From positions 1-50,969 of IMG/VR virus record IMGVR_UViG_3300025486_000003: a DNA stretch of 50,969 nt; one strand, given 5' to 3'. The notes beneath the pieces were generated by a model that made no database searches, was not told where the DNA came from, and saw nothing but the letters and a program-made list of their open reading frames with translations. This document shows positions 1 through 50,969 of the stretch, piece by piece (position 1 is the first letter of the stretch; every line of letters begins with the position of its first letter). The position numbers and the translations under genes were made by a program. The DNA is from a virus. Lineage: Duplodnaviria; Caudoviricetes.

Positions 1-611
1 CGGGTTAACACCTCCAACTCGGCTCGCAGCCGTTTCAATTCGCCGTTCAGCTCGACTTGGCGGTTAAACTGCTTTTCGCGCAGGACTTTCTTTTCTAAAG
101 CGGCAATCTCACGATCGAGCTTCTGTCGTCGTTTATCACGGTCAACCGCCTCGGAAATATCGCCATCCGCACCGAGCCGCCCGCCCGCTATCTGTCGTGC
201 TAAGTTTTCATACAAGGCGTCCAGATTCAGTCCCTCGAACCTCAGCGTAAACCCGTCAAGAGAAAACCAGTTTGTGTTGTAAAACTTGCCAGAGGCTTCC
301 ATCCACGCTTGCGCCTCATCACCAAAAGTCAGCACAAACAGGATTTTATATGGTATCGCTTTAGCGATGACGGGCAAGACGCGATTGTCTAGCCCACGCT
401 GCCTTAAAGCTACCTCGAACACCTGAATCTCTTTCACTGTTTCGCCGGTAGCGACGCCAACCGTACTGTCCGCGAGTTTGTTTCGCCAGACGACTAATTC
501 TATCTGGTCTTTTATCATGTCGCGCAACTGGGTGGTCAGCGTCGCGTTGGCGTAAAGCTTTTCTTTCGCCACACGGCGGTTCACCTCAGTTGAGCGGGGC
601 AATCCCAACAT
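1..611 (-). CDS. DUF4391-family protein, partial (runs off the left edge)
   Basis: Absent from the ORF track; translated by hand from ATG at 611: MLGLPRSTEVNRRVAKEKLY...EKQFNRQVELNGELKRL, open to position 1. Lies directly after the SNF2 helicase, the usual context upstream of type III R-M mod/res genes. Confidence 0.8.
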   Translation of the reverse strand, partial: MLGLPRSTEVNRRVAKEKLYANATLTTQLRDMIKDQIELVVWRNKLADSTVGVATGETVKEIQVFEVALRQRGLDNRVLPVIAKAIPYKILFVLTFGDEAQAWMEASGKFYNTNWFSLDGFTLRFEGLNLDALYENLARQIAGGRLGADGDISEAVDRDKRRQKLDREIAALEKKVLREKQFNRQVELNGELKRLRAELEVLT

Positions 612-615
612 AGCG

Positions 616-3600
616 TCACCTCATCACAAGGAAGCAAATCAACTCGAAGTCGTTCAGCCCGCTGGTATTGGTGTTCAAGGCAGATGTGCCACCAGGTCTG
701 AACAGGCTATCGATATCGCTTTCCTCTTTTACTTCTACGATTGAATTAATTGCATCCGACAGTAGAGCGGACACACTCTGCATATTACGTCCATCTTTCG
801 TTTCGGCGTTGAACTCACGGCAGACATCCATCACCGGTTTGGACTTACCTCTGCACAGTGAGCGTGTTTTATCGAGTAATTCCTTAGGGGATAGGTGGTC
901 GCAGATGACTTCTCCGTCCGTCCCAATATAAAGCATATAAAACGGGTGGAGACGGTTTTGCATATCGATGTTGACGCTATTGTTGCGGTTCTTGAGAACG
1001 AAAACAACTCCCGCAGGACAATCCTCAGAGGCGGGAACGACGGCATGGAGCCCGAACGGAACTTTATCCATATCCCCATTGTTTTTTACATATTCAAGTA
1101 GGTCGAGCCGGAACTCGTTTAGTCCTAAATCCATAATGGAGATGCCCGATTGCATATCCTCAATATCCACGACTTCCTCTTGAAGCCGTTTCAGTTGCGC
1201 CTTGCGGTATTCAAGGTCGCCTTTTTCCTCTGCATTGATAAGGTCGTCGTCGCCTGTTGCGGTCATCACGGAAATCCGCATTCTTGTTTCGACACGGCCC
1301 TTGAGGGAAAGGTACTCATCCAAATTCACGTCCGGCCAGAAACTTACAAGCTGAATAACCGCATTGCGGCTGCCAATACGGTCGATTCGCCCGAAACGCT
1401 GGATAACCCGCACGGGATTCCAATGAATATCGTAGTTGACACAGTAGTCGCAGTCCTGCAGGTTCTGACCTTCCGAAATACAGTCCGTGGCTATCAGCAC
1501 GGAGATGTCGTCTCGGTTGTTCGGCATCAGCAGGTTCTTATCTTTTGAAATCGGGGAGAATAAGGTCAGCACCTCGTTCATTGAAGCCCGCTGTCCCTTA
1601 ATCGTCGTCTTGCCGTCCACGCTGCCCGTGATCATCGCCGTGTCAAGCCCGAACTTCGACTTCACGAATGTGCTCACGTTTGCGTAAAGGTACTCTGCCG
1701 TATCGGAGAATGCCGAGAAAATAAGGATTTTGCGGTTATCCTCATTTATCGGACTGGTCAGCTTGCTCTCGATCAGCCCAAACAGGGTCTGGAGTTTGGT
1801 GTCGTGTTTTGGCGTAATGTCGTCGCTCATCAGCTTCAGCAGTTCTAACGTGTCGGCATCCTCCGTGAGCCTGTCTCGCCATGTCTTGTAGTCCATATCG
1901 GCAAGGTCTATTTTTATACTGTGTTCGGAAGCAAAATACTCCGTATTGCGGTCATCGTCGTCGAAGTCCGCATCGGCGCCCACAAGTTCCCGTCCATTGA
2001 TAACTGAGCCACCGCCAACGATGAATGCGTCTATCTCGGTAATGGTATCGTCAATCAGTTTTTTAACGCGCCCGAGGGTCAAGCGGAAGGACTCCACGGA
2101 ACTTTCGAGACGTTTCAAGAGGTTAATGCTCATCAAACGTCGTATGCCCATTTCGCGCCCGGCGCGGTTAATATTTATCGACGTGTCTACATACTTAGCA
2201 AGTTGGCTTGGGAAAATGAAATCGGTCGGGACATAGACCGAGAGGTTCAGCTTCATCAAATGGTCATAGATTTCGTTGTAGTTTATCGCGCTCTCCAAGT
2301 CGCTAAGGCGAGGGCGCAGGGAGAGGGGCTTCAACCGTTCGGGGAACGAGCCTATCTCACCCATGTTGTAATATTTCTCTATGTGCTTGCGGGAGCGGGC
2401 GATGGTCACGCTGTCAAGCACCTCAAAGAAGTCAAAGTCCAGCGACTTCAACAGGGCGTCCGTTGTACGTCTGCTATCTTCCTGTTTGTTCCATTGATTG
2501 AACACCTTTTGCGCGTTTCGGAAAATCTCGTCTATCGTGCGCTTTGTGCCGAGTTTCTCATTTATGAGGCTTGGATTACCCTCATAAGCAAGTTCAAGCT
2601 GGTGGCGCAAATCTGTGAAACGGTTGTTGACTGGGGTAGCCGAAAGCATCAGAACCTTAGTCTTTACGCCCGTGCGTATAACACGGTTCATTAAACGAAG
2701 GTAGCGGTTCTCGCGGCGGTCTTCACCATAGACCTCGCCGCCGTTTCTGAAGTTATGTGACTCATCGATTACCACAAGGTCATAATTTCCCCAATTGAGC
2801 CTATCCAAATCAAGCCCGTTAGATTTGCCACGATCCCTTGAAAGGTCTGTATGGTAAAGTACGTCGTATCTCAGACGGTCGGTAGCTATTGTGTTGTTGA
2901 CGTAGTTGCCCTTGAAAGTGTTCCAGTTGTCAGACAGCTTTTTTGGGCATAGCACAAGCACGGAGCGGTTGCGGTTCTCGTAATACTTGATGACCGCAAG
3001 GGCGGTGAATGTTTTGCCGAGGCCGACGCTGTCCGCAAGGATGCATCCGTTGAAAGATTCAAGTTTGTTGACAATCGCAAGAACCGCATCCTTTTGGAAC
3101 GTGTAGAGCTTACTCCAAATCTTGCTCTCTTTGAAGCCAGTCGCCTCGTTTGGCAGTACGTCCTCGGAAACGTCCTCCAAGAACTCATTAAAGATGTTAT
3201 ATATCGTCACAAAGTAAATAAACTCCGGAGCGTTTTCGTTGTAAGCGGCGGTGATGCCATCGATGACCTGCTCGGTCACGTCTTGCATCAGGCTTTTATC
3301 ATTCCATATCTGGCTGAACATGCGAATGTACTCGCCCGAAAGCGGCGCAAACATTTTATTAATTGGATTGATGATATTGTTGCCGCGCTCACACCCGATG
3401 TCAGCGGTGGTGAATCCGTGGAGTGGCATATAGGTCGTAGTCTCTTCGCCGACCACGTTCATAAAACCGCTGATGTTGCCACCTGTCAGGTTGGAGCGGA
3501 ACTTCACTTTCTTGCGAATCCAGTCTGCGCATTCGCGGGCGATAGACTTCTGGGTCAGTTCGTTTCGAAGTATAACTTCGAACTCGGTACCGTAGAGGGA

Positions 3601-3849
3601 ACGCTCACGATCAAGGCGGGGTATGTAGAACTCCCGCTTTTCTTTAGGCGCTTTCTCTTGCAGGAATGTCGGTGAGGTGAAGATAAAGCGCAACTCATCA
3701 ATGCCATCAAGCTGCTTCTTGAGGGCTTGATAAGCATAGATGGAGAAACACGCCGCCGCCACGGACAGCTTGTCGCCTTTCTTTATTGTGACCGTCAAAT
3801 CGTCCTTGACGGTTTTACTCACGTTATCGAACATTTCCGGCATCTGCAT
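616..3849 (-). CDS. SNF2-like SF2 helicase with a probable degenerate PLD-like N-terminal domain (R-M-associated type)
   Basis: Walker A ILADSVGLGKT, DESHNFRN, LSATP, SEGQNLQ, QRFGRIDRIG; 1077 aa. Confidence 0.88.
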   Translation of the reverse strand: MQMPEMFDNVSKTVKDDLTVTIKKGDKLSVAAACFSIYAYQALKKQLDGIDELRFIFTSPTFLQEKAPKEKREFYIPRLDRERSLYGTEFEVILRNELTQKSIARECADWIRKKVKFRSNLTGGNISGFMNVVGEETTTYMPLHGFTTADIGCERGNNIINPINKMFAPLSGEYIRMFSQIWNDKSLMQDVTEQVIDGITAAYNENAPEFIYFVTIYNIFNEFLEDVSEDVLPNEATGFKESKIWSKLYTFQKDAVLAIVNKLESFNGCILADSVGLGKTFTALAVIKYYENRNRSVLVLCPKKLSDNWNTFKGNYVNNTIATDRLRYDVLYHTDLSRDRGKSNGLDLDRLNWGNYDLVVIDESHNFRNGGEVYGEDRRENRYLRLMNRVIRTGVKTKVLMLSATPVNNRFTDLRHQLELAYEGNPSLINEKLGTKRTIDEIFRNAQKVFNQWNKQEDSRRTTDALLKSLDFDFFEVLDSVTIARSRKHIEKYYNMGEIGSFPERLKPLSLRPRLSDLESAINYNEIYDHLMKLNLSVYVPTDFIFPSQLAKYVDTSININRAGREMGIRRLMSINLLKRLESSVESFRLTLGRVKKLIDDTITEIDAFIVGGGSVINGRELVGADADFDDDDRNTEYFASEHSIKIDLADMDYKTWRDRLTEDADTLELLKLMSDDITPKHDTKLQTLFGLIESKLTSPINEDNRKILIFSAFSDTAEYLYANVSTFVKSKFGLDTAMITGSVDGKTTIKGQRASMNEVLTLFSPISKDKNLLMPNNRDDISVLIATDCISEGQNLQDCDYCVNYDIHWNPVRVIQRFGRIDRIGSRNAVIQLVSFWPDVNLDEYLSLKGRVETRMRISVMTATGDDDLINAEEKGDLEYRKAQLKRLQEEVVDIEDMQSGISIMDLGLNEFRLDLLEYVKNNGDMDKVPFGLHAVVPASEDCPAGVVFVLKNRNNSVNIDMQNRLHPFYMLYIGTDGEVICDHLSPKELLDKTRSLCRGKSKPVMDVCREFNAETKDGRNMQSVSALLSDAINSIVEVKEESDIDSLFRPGGTSALNTNTSGLNDFELICFLVMR

Positions 3850-4163: not shown

Positions 4164-4796
4164 TTATGTGGGAGCAAGCACACTAATTCCAGCAGCTTTT
4201 AGTTCTTCTATTAGGTTGACCTTCTTGATTGCCCAGTGGGTGCGGTTCAGTTCGTTGAACGAGGATGCACTTTGCAGGGCAATTTGGGTGGCAATCTCAT
4301 TTAGCCTTTGCTGTGGTATATTTGACAGCGGACGGAAATGAATCTTGATGCCGTTATCTTGCTTCTTCACGTCGGTCACAAGACCAAAGTAGGCTTGATG
4401 GGCATCGTCGGTTTTGCCGTAGCTGCGGTTCTCGCTCGCAAAGAGGGACGGGAATGTCTTGATTTGTGAAACTGCCTCCTCGCTTAAAGCGGAGAACTGC
4501 TCCTTGGATTCCGGCGACATACTCTCCGTCAACGCCCTGTCTTTTGGAACAGTAAAGTGGCAATCGCAGAAGGTTTCGCTGCCAATAACGAACAGATTGT
4601 AATAGTCCATATTGAGGGCAACGTTTGTGTTGACAATGCCACCCAATACCGGAGACATCATCGGAATGATCAGATTCACAACATTATTTACGTTGTTAGC
4701 CTGCGCGATTTGCATACTTCTTTCGCCGGTCTGTGTGAAGACTGTAGTATTTGGAGGTAAGTTTTCTAATGGAAGTGTTTTTGGCTTATTGTTCAC
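4164..4796 (-). CDS. Hypothetical protein with an N-terminal RHIM-like N/Q-rich motif and a globular C-terminal domain
   Basis: GTG at 4796 follows a GGGGGTGG RBS and overlaps the upstream stop; the track start at 4805 is an alternative. Motif VFTQTGERSMQIAQANNVNNVVN; C-terminal domain ends ELNRTHWAIKKVNL. Confidence 0.75.
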   Translation of the reverse strand: MNNKPKTLPLENLPPNTTVFTQTGERSMQIAQANNVNNVVNLIIPMMSPVLGGIVNTNVALNMDYYNLFVIGSETFCDCHFTVPKDRALTESMSPESKEQFSALSEEAVSQIKTFPSLFASENRSYGKTDDAHQAYFGLVTDVKKQDNGIKIHFRPLSNIPQQRLNEIATQIALQSASSFNELNRTHWAIKKVNLIEELKAAGISVLAPT

Positions 4797-5700
4797 TTTT
4801 ACCACCCCCGCTGTTATTTATCGTAATCGTATCAACGCTGCCGATTTGAATACTGTTGTTCCCGTACTGGTTAAAGACAAACGGATTATTAACCGTCTGG
4901 TTAGTTGTCTTTGAAGAGGCATCGTCAGCTGTATCTTCCACAAATGGTTCGCCGGAGTCTGCAGATGATTCGTCCTCAACTGTAGCAGCGGCTTCCTGTT
5001 CTATCTTGATGTCTGCCATTTCAAGCAGCATTACGTTAATAGACCGAGTAATGCTATCGCCCATATTTCCCGCATATTTTCTTTCTGCTCCGCCCCTTGA
5101 CGGGCACCAAGCGTCGTAGGTAGCTTTACCCGCTTTATTCTCTGGTCTATTTACAATGACGAAGTGCCAAACGCCCAACAGAAAAGTCTGCAAGCAGAAG
5201 TCGCTCATGCCACGGAGAGCGGCTTTTGTTATTCCTTGCCCATTTTCGACTATGAAGAATTCTTGATCGTCATCAATGCTCTGATCAGCATTTATTAGAT
5301 CGAGTAATGCCTTTACAAGCCAGACCTCTTTTGGCGTACTTGTCCCAACTTCAAGGAAACGGCTAACAAAATCATTCATCATTTTTAGTGCGGCAAGATA
5401 TTGCGTTTTTACGCGGTTATCGAATGCCATTATTTCCTGATTGAAAAGAAAGGAAAGATTGGTGCCATTATTTTCGCAAGACTTGTAATCAAACACATTT
5501 GTACTAAAAGTATCCTTATTTCTTGGCTCGGCGTACTCAAGGTAAACCACTCTGCCAAGACCTGCGAAGGTTTCAGGTTGTGATAGGCCATCGAGTTCAC
5601 CAGCATGTTGGCTGCGCTTGCTTGTCCGTTGTTTTCGTGCTTCCAGAACCAGTGTAAAAAACGTGCCGCCACATAACACAGGGTAAGCGATGTTTGCCAC
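4786..5700 (-). CDS. Hypothetical protein with an acidic linker and a C-terminal RHIM-like motif
   Basis: AGGAGG RBS before GTG at 5700; 304 aa; ends ...EDESSADSGEPFVEDTADD...VFNQYGNNSIQIGSVDTITINN. Confidence 0.8.
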   Translation of the reverse strand: MANIAYPVLCGGTFFTLVLEARKQRTSKRSQHAGELDGLSQPETFAGLGRVVYLEYAEPRNKDTFSTNVFDYKSCENNGTNLSFLFNQEIMAFDNRVKTQYLAALKMMNDFVSRFLEVGTSTPKEVWLVKALLDLINADQSIDDDQEFFIVENGQGITKAALRGMSDFCLQTFLLGVWHFVIVNRPENKAGKATYDAWCPSRGGAERKYAGNMGDSITRSINVMLLEMADIKIEQEAAATVEDESSADSGEPFVEDTADDASSKTTNQTVNNPFVFNQYGNNSIQIGSVDTITINNSGGGKSEQ

Positions 5701-5785: not shown

Positions 5786-5821
5786 AGCCCTTAGAGAGCA
5801 ATCTCTAGGGGCTTTTTTTTT
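5786..5821 (+). terminator. Intrinsic terminator-like hairpin in the divergent control region
   Basis: AGCCCTTAGAGA-GCAA-TCTCTAGGGGCT followed by a T-run. Confidence 0.75.
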
Positions 5822-5883
5822 GCCTTGGATTGGACAATCACACGGTTATCTTCAGTCCAATTCCAGGCAAAGCCTGCCAAAAC

Positions 5884-5911
5884 ATTATAACAAAAAAAGT
5901 AAAAATGTCAA
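5884..5911 (-). promoter_or_regulatory. Consensus sigma-A promoter of the leftward operon
   Basis: Minus strand TTGACA-N16-TATAAT with an extended -10 TG. Confidence 0.75.
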
Positions 5912-5931
5912 TCTATGGAGGGAAGTCAAGG

Positions 5932-6510
5932 ATGAGGAATTACCAAAAACTCTATTACCAGCACTACTATGAAATGCTCCCAAGCGGAGTGGAAACAGAA
6001 GTAACCCGCCGAGAGTGCTTTGCGCCCGCCGAAGTTCCGACCCCGGCTAATCCTTTTAAGCAGCGGTGGTACTACGACCCCGAAGCAAGCTGCGCCATTC
6101 GGCTGCCTAGAAATAAGCTGGGTGATGTTCTTGGAAAACGCAACGCCGCCGACTTGAAAGCTGCAGAGCGCTATCAGATCCAAAAGATTGAAAATTGCCC
6201 CGGCGAACTGGACAAACCCATTGCCAATCGCGACGGACGCAAAGCTATCTTTTTAGAAGTTGCAGACGAGACTGCCGACATCCTTGCCATTTTGGAAGAT
6301 CAGGAGCGGCTTTCTGCGCTTAGCTTTGTGCTTAAGAGCCTTGCGCCAGATGAACTTGAACTCTGGGACTGTCTTGTAAAAAAGGTAAAAAAACAGGACA
6401 TTGCCGACCGTTTCCGGATTACCCTTGACGGCGTGTACTACCGTGAGAAGCGGTTAAAATCTATTCTGCGTTCCAACGAAATCCTCAAAAGTTTTTTCAA
6501 AGGCAACTGA
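5932..6510 (+). CDS. Sigma-70 region-4-like transcriptional regulator
   Basis: ATG at 5932 after GGAGGGA; C-terminal LAPDELELWDCL..KKQDIADRFRITLDGVYYREKRL is sigma4/HTH-like; first gene of the rightward operon. Confidence 0.65.
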   Translation: MRNYQKLYYQHYYEMLPSGVETEVTRRECFAPAEVPTPANPFKQRWYYDPEASCAIRLPRNKLGDVLGKRNAADLKAAERYQIQKIENCPGELDKPIANRDGRKAIFLEVADETADILAILEDQERLSALSFVLKSLAPDELELWDCLVKKVKKQDIADRFRITLDGVYYREKRLKSILRSNEILKSFFKGN

Positions 6511-50201: not shown

Positions 50202-50969
50202 ATGGAGCGAATCATCACGCGAACAGGCCCATCGGTTTCGTTGCTGCCAAGAAGACCAAGGGTTGCCGCCTACGCACGAGTATCTTCCGGGAAGGAGTCA
50301 ATGCTCCATTCCCTCGCCGCCCAAGTCAGCTATTATAGCGGACTGATCCAGCGGCGGCCGGACTGGGAATATGCCGGGGTCTACGCGGACGAGGCGCTGA
50401 CGGGCACAAAAGATAGCCGCCCGGAGTTTAGGCGTATGCTTGCCGACTGCAGGGACGGTAAAGTTGACATGATCATCACCAAGTCAATTTCACGCTTTGC
50501 CAGGAATACCGTTACACTTCTTGAGACTGTGCGGGAACTGAAATCACTTGCCGTGGACGTATATTTTGAGGAGCAGAACATCCACTCCATCAGTGGAGAC
50601 GGTGAACTTATGCTGACCATTCTCGCGTCTTATGCACAGGCAGAAAGCTTGTCAGCCAGCGAAAACTGCAAGTGGCGCGTACGTAAGCGTTTTGAGAACG
50701 GTGAACTGGCCGGACTCAATTTCATGTTCGGATACCGCATCGCAAAAGGTAAAATAGAAATCGATCCTGAGCAGGCGGCGGCTGTCCGCATGATTTTTGA
50801 TGATTATATCGGCGGCATGGGTGGCGGCAGGATTGCAAAGAAGCTGATTGAAATGAATGTGGCCACCGTGCGCGGCGCAGACTGGAATAGCGAGCGCGTA
50901 ATGGAAATCCTAAGGAATGAAAAATATACCGGAAACGCGTTGCTGCAGAAAAAGTATGTGGAAAGATAG
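50202..50969 (+). CDS. Large serine recombinase, apparently truncated at 255 aa
   Basis: AYARVS, KSISRFARN, AQAES.S.SEN, FGY, ILRNEKYTG; stop at the window edge before any Zn-ribbon/coiled-coil domain. Confidence 0.85.
   Translation: MERIITRTGPSVSLLPRRPRVAAYARVSSGKESMLHSLAAQVSYYSGLIQRRPDWEYAGVYADEALTGTKDSRPEFRRMLADCRDGKVDMIITKSISRFARNTVTLLETVRELKSLAVDVYFEEQNIHSISGDGELMLTILASYAQAESLSASENCKWRVRKRFENGELAGLNFMFGYRIAKGKIEIDPEQAAAVRMIFDDYIGGMGGGRIAKKLIEMNVATVRGADWNSERVMEILRNEKYTGNALLQKKYVER

Follow-up and report, generated by a model that had tools for sequence, protein, structure and literature searches.

Can two small, adjacent genes of a temperate phage make up a complete signalling device, in which one protein passes a signal to the other through a short motif that both of them carry? 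The question is raised by the provirus record IMGVR_UViG_3300025486_000003 of the IMG/VR collection, all 50,969 nucleotides (nt) of which were analyzed here (hereafter the window). Two overlapping genes on its minus strand, referred to as gene 1 and gene 2, encode proteins that share a motif of ~21 residues, located at the C-terminal end of the gene 1 protein (the tail) and near the N-terminus of the gene 2 protein (the head). An earlier note on this DNA had proposed that they are an amyloid-signalling pair; its observations are confirmed here, and its reading is supported in part, in all predictions open to computation except the match to a RHIM profile. When homologous loci are compared, the motifs differ strongly between lineages, yet the tail matches the head within each locus, and these sequence comparisons indicate selection for homotypic pairing of the motifs. 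Specific coupling of a sensor to an effector through the motifs is very probable. We also consider it moderately probable that the genes form a phage-borne abortive infection (Abi) module, whose two proteins would be coupled by templating between homotypic amyloid-like motifs.

In the window, residues 275-295 of gene 1 (4878-4816) read VFNQYGNNSIQIGSVDTITIN; the motif segments of both proteins are listed in Table 1. Seven of 13 aligned positions are identical, or 8 of 21 when the alignment is extended without gaps, and the motif coordinates and the 7/13 identity given in the earlier note were reproduced. The best ungapped BLOSUM62 score of this tail against this head is 40, compared to 23.8 ± 4.2 for shuffled heads, with 4 of 2000 shuffles reaching 40. 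A recent DNA duplication was considered as the source of the similarity and rejected because the nucleotide identity of the motif coding segments is just 34/63; in addition, the likeness is kept across diverged motif classes. The gene positions claimed earlier (4786-5700 and 4164-4805, minus strand) and the overlap of the genes hold as well, as do the consensus promoter and the acidic linker that precedes the gene 1 motif (Table 1). Homologue alignments and a Protein Atlas record place the start of gene 2 at the GTG at 4796, behind GGGGGTGG; from there the overlap is 11 nt, and it is 20 nt if the longer open reading frame (ORF) is taken. Both motifs have low confidence in monomer models (predicted local distance difference test, pLDDT, below 50), and a complex prediction for full-length gene 1 and gene 2 proteins with alignments (score 0.00, mark 0.32) is evidence neither way.

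The shared motif had been described as RHIM-like. Gene 1 does contain the tetrad IQIG, as does RIPK1, but gene 2 has MQIA in its place, and other motif classes have no tetrad altogether. Neither protein matches RHIM in a Pfam scan (E≤1), so that the label is weak.

To follow the pair beyond the window, loci were drawn from a genome collection (55) and a viral collection (64 with the gene 2 profile and 78 further ones with the gene 1 domain profile). At E≤0.001 there are 320 homologues of gene 1 among 1467 candidates and 338 homologues of gene 2 among 549, and gene 1 lies directly upstream of gene 2 in 85 unique loci, with duplicates removed. The pair is conserved in homologues, as the earlier note expected, and each family has ~320-340 members. 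One of the loci, L001, belongs to a Dethiobacter metagenome-assembled genome and is 100% identical to the query across the gene 2 match. The named hosts are all Bacillota (Desulfosporosinus, Clostridia, Oscillospiraceae, Lachnospiraceae, Christensenella, Pilibacter, Selenomonas and Megasphaera), and the pair is also found in the Streptococcus phages Javan102, 105, 108 and 112.

These loci carry the evidence for co-variation. Among 24 genome pairs, the summed score of tails against their cognate heads is 1321, compared to 748 ± 55 for permuted partners, and none of 10,000 permutations reaches 1321. Since related loci inflate such a test, 65 unique pairs were clustered into 10 tail classes and a single representative of each was compared. 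In all 10 classes, the tail has its cognate head as best partner and the head its cognate tail; the class-level sum is 484, vs. 257 ± 30 upon permutation, and is matched by none of 20,000 permutations. Examples of the motif classes are IPNYGT, NNYGNGPQIGT, INISGGNNSF..HVD and AQFHVEAKDGGIAAG. The agreement of gene 1 tail and gene 2 head is illustrated by L021 (QQNGDGNTVIPNYGTININ and QQTGNDNVMIPNYGTVNIN), L025 (NNYGNGPQIGTINGD and NNYGNGPQIGTVGGD), L076 (INISGGNNNFYQHVDKLTIN and ITVSGGNNNFVAHADTVENN) and L116 (AQFHVEAKDGGIAAGIVYGGINI and SQMTVTASGNGVAAGIVQGGINI). The earlier note had also anticipated conserved motifs beside a diverging linker and, among 11 proteins of the same class, the mean pairwise identity is 0.58 in the motif and 0.28 in the linker, with 0.52 in the N-terminal domain. 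The tails are enriched in N (19%), G (12%), I (10%) and V (7.5%), whereas they contain little L (1.5%) and P (1.8%). K, at 6.7%, is not depleted, which may reflect lysine-rich ends of the tails.

In 5 of the 85 unique loci, two tandem gene 2 paralogues stand behind one gene 1; loci of this kind are L025, L113, L115 and L116 (and L112, L117 and L118). Both heads resemble the lone tail, with scores of 92 and 43 in L025; in such loci, one effector would receive input from two sensors.

As a coupling device, the motif is portable and independent of either globular domain. In L018, L106 and L108, the upstream protein has an unrelated, LmuA-like N-terminus (PADLOC, 3e-18) with no match to the gene 1 hidden Markov model, and its tail, ATVVNQYG.NC.HIDHVD, matches the head of the gene 2 homologue downstream, TTVNQYGDKSVHIDTV. 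A common origin of the two effector N-terminal domains was rejected, as an hhalign comparison aligns the C-terminal neck, linker and motif alone (probability 84). The receptor side is exchanged in L122 and L165, where gene 1 is followed, in the place of gene 2, by a NACHT+SNaCT14 protein with a matching head at its N-terminus; its motif class is that of L022, a locus of the gene 2 type. The claim that the system has no NLR is therefore correct for this locus but not for these two sister loci. The coupling can also be covalent: 25 of 303 proteins with the gene 1 domain hold the gene 2 C-terminal domain in the same chain, and the nine fusion junctions that were inspected have either no motif (six) or a single copy (three). 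These domain swaps and fusions fit direct contact between motif and motif. A pocket in the gene 2 C-terminal domain that binds both motifs was rejected as the main model because the same motif class serves a NACHT receptor and because a matching pair is kept with a different effector.

Some relatives combine the parts in other ways. P0247, P0254 and P0370 are three-part fusions of the gene 1 N-terminal domain, an insert (see below) and the gene 2 C-terminal domain, with a C-terminal DUF6650 following the latter in P0247 and P0254. At L192:6977-9526, an ORF of 219 aa with the gene 1 N-terminal domain and a NACHT-SNaCT14 ORF of 598 aa are separated by a gap of ~90 nt and have no motifs; they look like what a frameshift or a stop would make of an all-in-one protein.

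Which of the two proteins would give the signal and which would receive it? No family in Pfam, NCBIfam, PADLOC or PHROG matches either protein, and there is no usable Protein Atlas match for gene 1. The all-alpha N-terminal domain of gene 1 is well defined in its AlphaFold2 (AF2) model, with a pLDDT of 82-96 in each 10-residue block of residues 41-200. A profile built from 33 sequences of this domain finds 1252 cluster representatives at E≤0.001, 637 of them at E≤1e-30, and in 302 of 303 proteins the domain begins no later than residue 25. Among 53 longer homologues, NACHT is present in 21, usually with SNaCT14 (e.g. a Mogibacterium protein of 874 aa), NB-ARC and DUF6650 in two each, and ABC-3C CTD6 in one (P0283). 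The most conserved stretch is the extreme N-terminus, a hydrophobic helix with the sequence LCGGTFFTL (Kyte-Doolittle 19-residue mean of 1.66 for residues 1-19). Because of this stretch and the strict N-terminal placement of the domain, our best guess at its activity is membrane attack via the hydrophobic helix, in the manner of HeLo/Bell-type killers. In some gene 1 homologues (P0150, P0152, P0211, P0224, P0243, P0246 and L008:4611-5936), the N-terminal domain is separated from the motif, or from the gene 2 domain in fusions, by an extra insert of ~130-190 residues. This insert contains a conserved segment, LYGLISGGG(T/S)LSV(Y/F)GY, and has no Pfam or PADLOC match in P0224.

The C-terminal domain of gene 2 is conserved around YYNLFV...FPSLFASEN...QDNGIK...NELNRTHWAIK. 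Its block-mean pLDDT is mostly 70-89 and falls to 59-60 over residues 171-190. For gene 2, the Pfam scan (E≤1) returns only Ephrin at 0.11, no NTPase was matched in the family-library scans, and the Protein Atlas places the domain in unnamed, mostly viral clusters (score 0.90-0.91). The earlier note likened it to a domain fused to TIR/Abi effectors, and an association with TIR does exist: among 10 distant homologues of the domain, five carry TIR_2 (one also SEFIR), two FRG and one CHAT, and two have no match. In these other bacteria, the domain is N-terminal to TIR_2/SEFIR and FRG but C-terminal to CHAT. PADLOC assigns two of the fusion partners to bSEFIR (3.5e-59) and PDC-S15 (1e-98). Given the fusion architectures of both domains, gene 1 would be the output and gene 2 the input, in keeping with the earlier proposal of a gene 1 effector and a gene 2 non-NLR sensor.

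The mechanism that we favour would run as follows. Gene 2 would act as the sensor, its beta-rich C-terminal domain detecting a cue of infection, whereupon the protein would self-associate. Clustering would allow the disordered N-terminal motif, rich in N/Q/G and I/V, to take a cross-beta fold, which would in turn template its homologue in the C-terminal tail of gene 1. The resulting clustering or refolding of gene 1 would activate its N-terminal domain and lead to cell arrest or death, so that the module would serve as prophage-encoded abortive infection or superinfection exclusion. In this scheme, the amyloid state, the direction in which the signal runs, the cue, the activity of the effector and the phenotype of the pair are all things that we infer.

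The location of the genes is compatible with such a role. The minus strand from 5911 to 3 forms one operon, consisting of the promoter, a leader of ~185 nt, gene 1, gene 2, a small helix-turn-helix (HTH) gene, an SNF2 helicase gene and a DUF4391 gene (Table 1). The pair heads a prophage defence-cargo operon, as the slot downstream of it carries defence genes. The HTH protein also scores 2.2e-14 against the NCBIfam model MADS1, under that model's cutoff; a homologue of it lies 3′ of gene 2 in 21 of the loci compared and is annotated as VrlI-like in phage Javan105. A small HTH gene has this position in most loci. The operon diverges from a replication module that encodes DUF2800, an Enc34-type single-stranded DNA-binding protein and PolA, and it does so too in most of the compared loci and in Streptococcus phage Javan105.

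Table 1. Features of the gene 1/gene 2 locus in the window.
Feature	Positions	Strand	Basis or remarks
Sigma-70-type promoter, TTGACA-16-TG-TATAAT	5884..5911	-	12/12 consensus, extended -10; consensus match only, function predicted
Gene 1, 304 aa, GTG start behind GGGAGG; N-terminal all-alpha domain, acidic linker, C-terminal motif	4786..5700	-	Putative effector
Gene 1 N-terminal domain, residues 1-228, unnamed, all-alpha, effector-position	5017..5700	-	AF2 model and profile searches
Gene 1 linker, residues 229-268, acidic, poorly conserved	4897..5016	-	12/40 acidic residues; pLDDT < 50
Gene 1 C-terminal motif, residues 271-296, NNPFVFNQYGNNSIQIGSVDTITINN	4813..4890	-	Co-variation with the downstream head
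Gene 2, 210 aa from GTG at 4796 (longest ORF from 4805, 213 aa)	4164..4796	-	Putative sensor
Gene 2 N-terminal motif, residues 22-44, VFTQTGERSMQIAQANNVNNVVN	4674..4742	-	pLDDT 29-39 in monomer model
Gene 2 C-terminal beta-rich domain, ~residues 66-213 of the 213-aa ORF	4167..4610	-	Model and alignment
HTH_17 / VrlI-like / MAD1-like small DNA-binding protein, 66 aa	3876..4076	-	Pfam HTH_17, 1.5e-13
Variable defence cargo: SNF2 helicase (616-3849) and DUF4391 (3-611, cut by the record end)	3..3849	-	Family-library matches

Several other features of the record were noted. A strong hairpin on the plus strand (5786-5821), with a stem of 12 bp followed by T8, lies within the leader, a short distance upstream of the divergent first gene; on the minus strand the A-run precedes the stem, so that the transcript of the pair would not be terminated there. 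The hairpin may be an antisense terminator, an operator or an RNA element. The longest ORF of that divergent gene (5830-6510, plus strand, 226 aa, no Pfam match) overlaps the minus-strand promoter, and translation probably starts further into the ORF, near 5935, behind GGAGGG. The record is an IMG/VR provirus with a CheckV completeness of 94% and encodes a primase-helicase, TerL, a portal, a major head protein, a tape measure and, at the right end, a serine integrase. The latter (50202-50969, plus strand; serine-recombinase type, PHROG 95, 2.4e-85) runs off the record. The recorded borders of the provirus thus truncate genes at both ends, the integrase on the right and the DUF4391 gene on the left. 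Cargo beyond the record end is seen in L001 and consists of a Schlafen AlbA_2 gene and an N6_N4 methylase gene.

The content of the cargo slot varies. Classes were defined by BLAST comparison with five representatives; four of these were checked with PADLOC, and the SNF2 helicase was checked by a separate library scan. In the 71 unique loci that could be scored, the gene that follows the pair and the HTH gene encodes a PDC-S06/RloC-like ATPase in 62, SNF2 in five, HsdM in three and a McrB-like protein in one. The earlier note had read the helicase-DUF4391 context as a sign of anti-phage defence; the slot is indeed one for defence cargo, but this cargo is one of several interchangeable ones and no fixed partner of the pair. 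The prevalent ATPase is of the ABC type (PADLOC, E ~1e-209; e.g. L009:7152-9422, L018:10637-12922 and L005:17186-19474) and is often adjoined by type I restriction-modification (R-M) genes. No homologue of PDC-S06 was found in this provirus, in L001-L003 or in L022.

How does amyloid templating compare to other explanations of the same observations? The motifs could instead form a finite beta-zipper heterodimer that tethers the proteins 1:1, with activation by a conformational change and no templating. Plain docking peptides would equally be expected to co-vary, to be independent of the globular domains and to be replaced by a covalent link, and gene 2 has no NTPase to drive oligomerization. 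However, the partners are alike and not complementary, as is typical of in-register stacking, and the make-up of the motifs (rich in N/G/I/V, poor in L/P) and their length of ~20-25 residues match those of amyloid signalling motifs as far as the source is available (10.1101/2020.01.06.895854). Furthermore, the same motif class serves a NACHT receptor, an architecture for which amyloid templating has been experimentally shown in other families, and the single motif copy kept in 3/9 fusion junctions is something that a heterodimeric tether would not need. Docking without templating is therefore a candidate that we take seriously and yet judge unlikely. All readings other than templating and docking are, taken together, more unlikely still. 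Among these, gene 1 and gene 2 might be the effector and the middle subunit of a larger ABC-3C- or Lamassu-like system, with an ATPase as the sensor that was lost or replaced here. Such a system would account for the PDC-S06/RloC-like gene in 62/71 loci, for the ABC-3C CTD6 in P0283, and for the fact that the alternative effector matches the N-terminus of LmuA while the ATPase weakly matches LmuB. It is nevertheless improbable, as 9/71 loci, including the window, hold other cargo and several (see above) have no PDC-S06 homologue; the pair and the ATPase are separated by the HTH gene and, in L005, by a complete type I R-M system; and the N-terminus of the ATPase in L018, L106 and L108 has no motif. 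In addition, type I R-M genes are linked to the ATPase, as they are to PrrC and RloC, and PDC-S06 is what we take to be a single-gene candidate in PADLOC. No ATPase of the ABC-3C type was found in the provirus, and neither gene 1 nor gene 2 matches a CTD or ABC-3C model in Pfam or NCBIfam.

A role in lysogeny control is slightly less probable again. The pair occupies the site where a CI-type repressor operon would be expected, diverging from the early replication module in nearly all loci and co-transcribed with a conserved small HTH gene, and it could act as a switch in the maintenance or induction of the prophage instead of in immunity. Neither protein has a DNA-binding domain in Pfam or NCBIfam, however, and both domains recur in defence architectures (NACHT, NB-ARC, ABC-3C, TIR/SEFIR and PDC-S15). 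Moreover, the immunity region of other temperate phages also houses exclusion genes, an example being rexAB beside cI in lambda. As for a chance or compositional similarity without function, the match in the window is modest (8/21), and its cognate head ranks just 4th of 24, since equal or higher scores are reached by heads from other loci. Yet only 4 of 2000 shuffles reach the score of the window pair. At the level of the family, chance is refuted by the permuted genome pairs, by the class-level test in both directions (10/10, 0/20,000 permutations) and by the conservation of the motif beside its diverged linker, and its probability is negligible.

Several points weigh against templating as we propose it. 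Gene 2 has no NTPase or other known oligomerization engine, so that how a cue nucleates the fold is unexplained. The predominance of the PDC-S06/RloC-like ATPase in the cargo slot means that the pair may not always act alone. On the effector side, Foldseek finds no structural relative of gene 1 in PDB or BFVD at E≤0.001, and homology to HeLo or Bell, or a fold like the MLKL four-helix bundle, was not detected by these searches or by PDB sequence profiles; the profiles of both proteins gave only chance-level matches there (E 0.17-0.53). Cys10 and Cys75 of gene 1 are near-invariant and Asp139 is invariant, which would also fit an enzyme or a metal site. The N-terminal domains of NACHT proteins can be adaptors instead of effectors, according to the available part of one study (10.1101/2022.07.19.500537). 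The fold of the gene 2 C-terminal domain matches Lon-N and YTH at E 0.04 and with a TM of 0.24-0.46, too weakly to name a fold; a PUA-like assignment is likewise weak. The absence of RHIM from the Pfam results belongs here as well.

If the templating scheme is taken to its full extent, temperate phages of Bacillota would carry prion-like switches, in which a sensor of ~145 residues with no NTPase nucleates an amyloid. The motif classes, at least 10 in number, would be mutually orthogonal "address codes" that NACHT receptors and two unrelated effector domains share interchangeably. We put this forward tentatively, as a possibility that is rather less likely than likely to hold in all its parts. 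Were it true, motif diversification would insulate co-resident prophage systems from cross-talk, or would allow escape from phage-encoded motif decoys, of a kind with the viral RHIM proteins that block necroptosis. Amyloid wiring would then be a plug-and-play standard for phage-borne immunity, with the simplest known amyloid receptor. Bacterial amyloid signalling has so far consisted of BASS/NLR predictions and one experimental case, Bab/Agp. The 85 loci with at least 10 classes are close to a ready-made specificity experiment on the residues that set cross-seeding barriers. The effector-position domain, with its 1252 cluster representatives, is new and widespread and is common to NACHT, NB-ARC and ABC-3C proteins, while the small sensor domain is common to TIR/SEFIR and FRG defence proteins and raises the question of what triggers nucleation without an NTPase. 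There is also evidence that motif wiring like this is phage-borne and has a fixed place ahead of a defence-cargo slot. Finally, gut and anaerobic Bacillota commonly have the pair, whereas BASS motifs were first reported from multicellular lineages.

Where does the pair stand among the systems already known? It has the effector-motif and motif-receptor layout of fungal HET-S/NWD2, of FASS and of the mammalian RHIM proteins RIPK1/RIPK3. Unlike HET-S and RHIM, it has MQIA in gene 2, no Pfam RHIM match, no motif pseudo-repeat in the effector and no HeLo domain. Single-protein TIR/SEFIR and FRG candidates (PADLOC bSEFIR and PDC-S15) use the gene 2 C-terminal domain in a similar way, as an N-terminal module; there the domain is covalently joined to the effector, whereas here the motif pair links it to a different effector. 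No description of the gene 1/gene 2 family was found in the full-text literature, a search whose scope excluded supplements and figures.

Of the features of FASS/BASS-type systems, adjacent co-oriented genes, a cognate motif pair, all-in-one homologues, and the composition and monomer disorder of the motif are all present. An NLR receptor is absent at this locus, given that no NTPase is matched in gene 2, and present only in L122 and L165. In the available text of Dyrka et al. (10.1101/2020.01.06.895854), BASS motifs are rich in N/Q/G/V/I and poor in P/L and are found at the C-terminus of the effector and the N-terminus of the receptor, encoded by adjacent genes. As judged against that text, the pair resembles the Bell/NLR pairs of BASS1-10 in its shared-motif logic, all-in-one counterparts, composition, length, termini and gene adjacency, and the two sister loci even hold a NACHT receptor; the likeness is set by composition, length, position and adjacency and not by a logo. 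It differs in that its receptor has no NB-ARC, NACHT or repeats, its effector is not Bell, and it is carried by phages of anaerobic, unicellular Bacillota and not by Actinobacteria or Cyanobacteria. In bacterial NACHT proteins, as described in the available part of Kibby et al. (10.1101/2022.07.19.500537), the N-terminal position is held by effectors or adaptors and the C-terminal SNaCT is the presumed sensor. The gene 1 domain holds that N-terminal effector position in NACHT-SNaCT14 proteins; unlike in the systems covered there, effector and receptor of the present pair are two proteins, and no STAND NTPase serves as the receptor.

The closest precedent is Bab/Agp (BASS11), an amyloid-signalling Abi system from a prophage of E. 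coli ECOR25 that has a non-NLR sensor and is experimentally proven, according to the part of the report that is available (10.1101/2024.11.07.622273). Because Bab/Agp works with a non-NLR sensor, an NLR is not obligatory for signalling of this kind. In both cases, going by the same part of that report, an adjacent prophage-defence gene pair encodes an effector with a C-terminal motif of ~20-25 residues and a non-NLR sensor with a matching N-terminus, and an Abi output is proposed. Unlike Bab/Agp, the present effector has an all-alpha domain of ~228 aa in place of a Bell-type domain of ~90 aa, and the pair, known from its sequence alone, belongs to prophages of Bacillota and has at least 10 co-varying motif classes. 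The Pfam domains of the Bab/Agp signature (Bell-type effector, TPR-GreA/B-C-PIN sensor) are present in neither protein. What sets the pair apart from the known amyloid-signalling systems is thus its effector domain, its small NTPase-free sensor, its carriage by phages of unicellular Bacillota and the breadth of its motif diversification.

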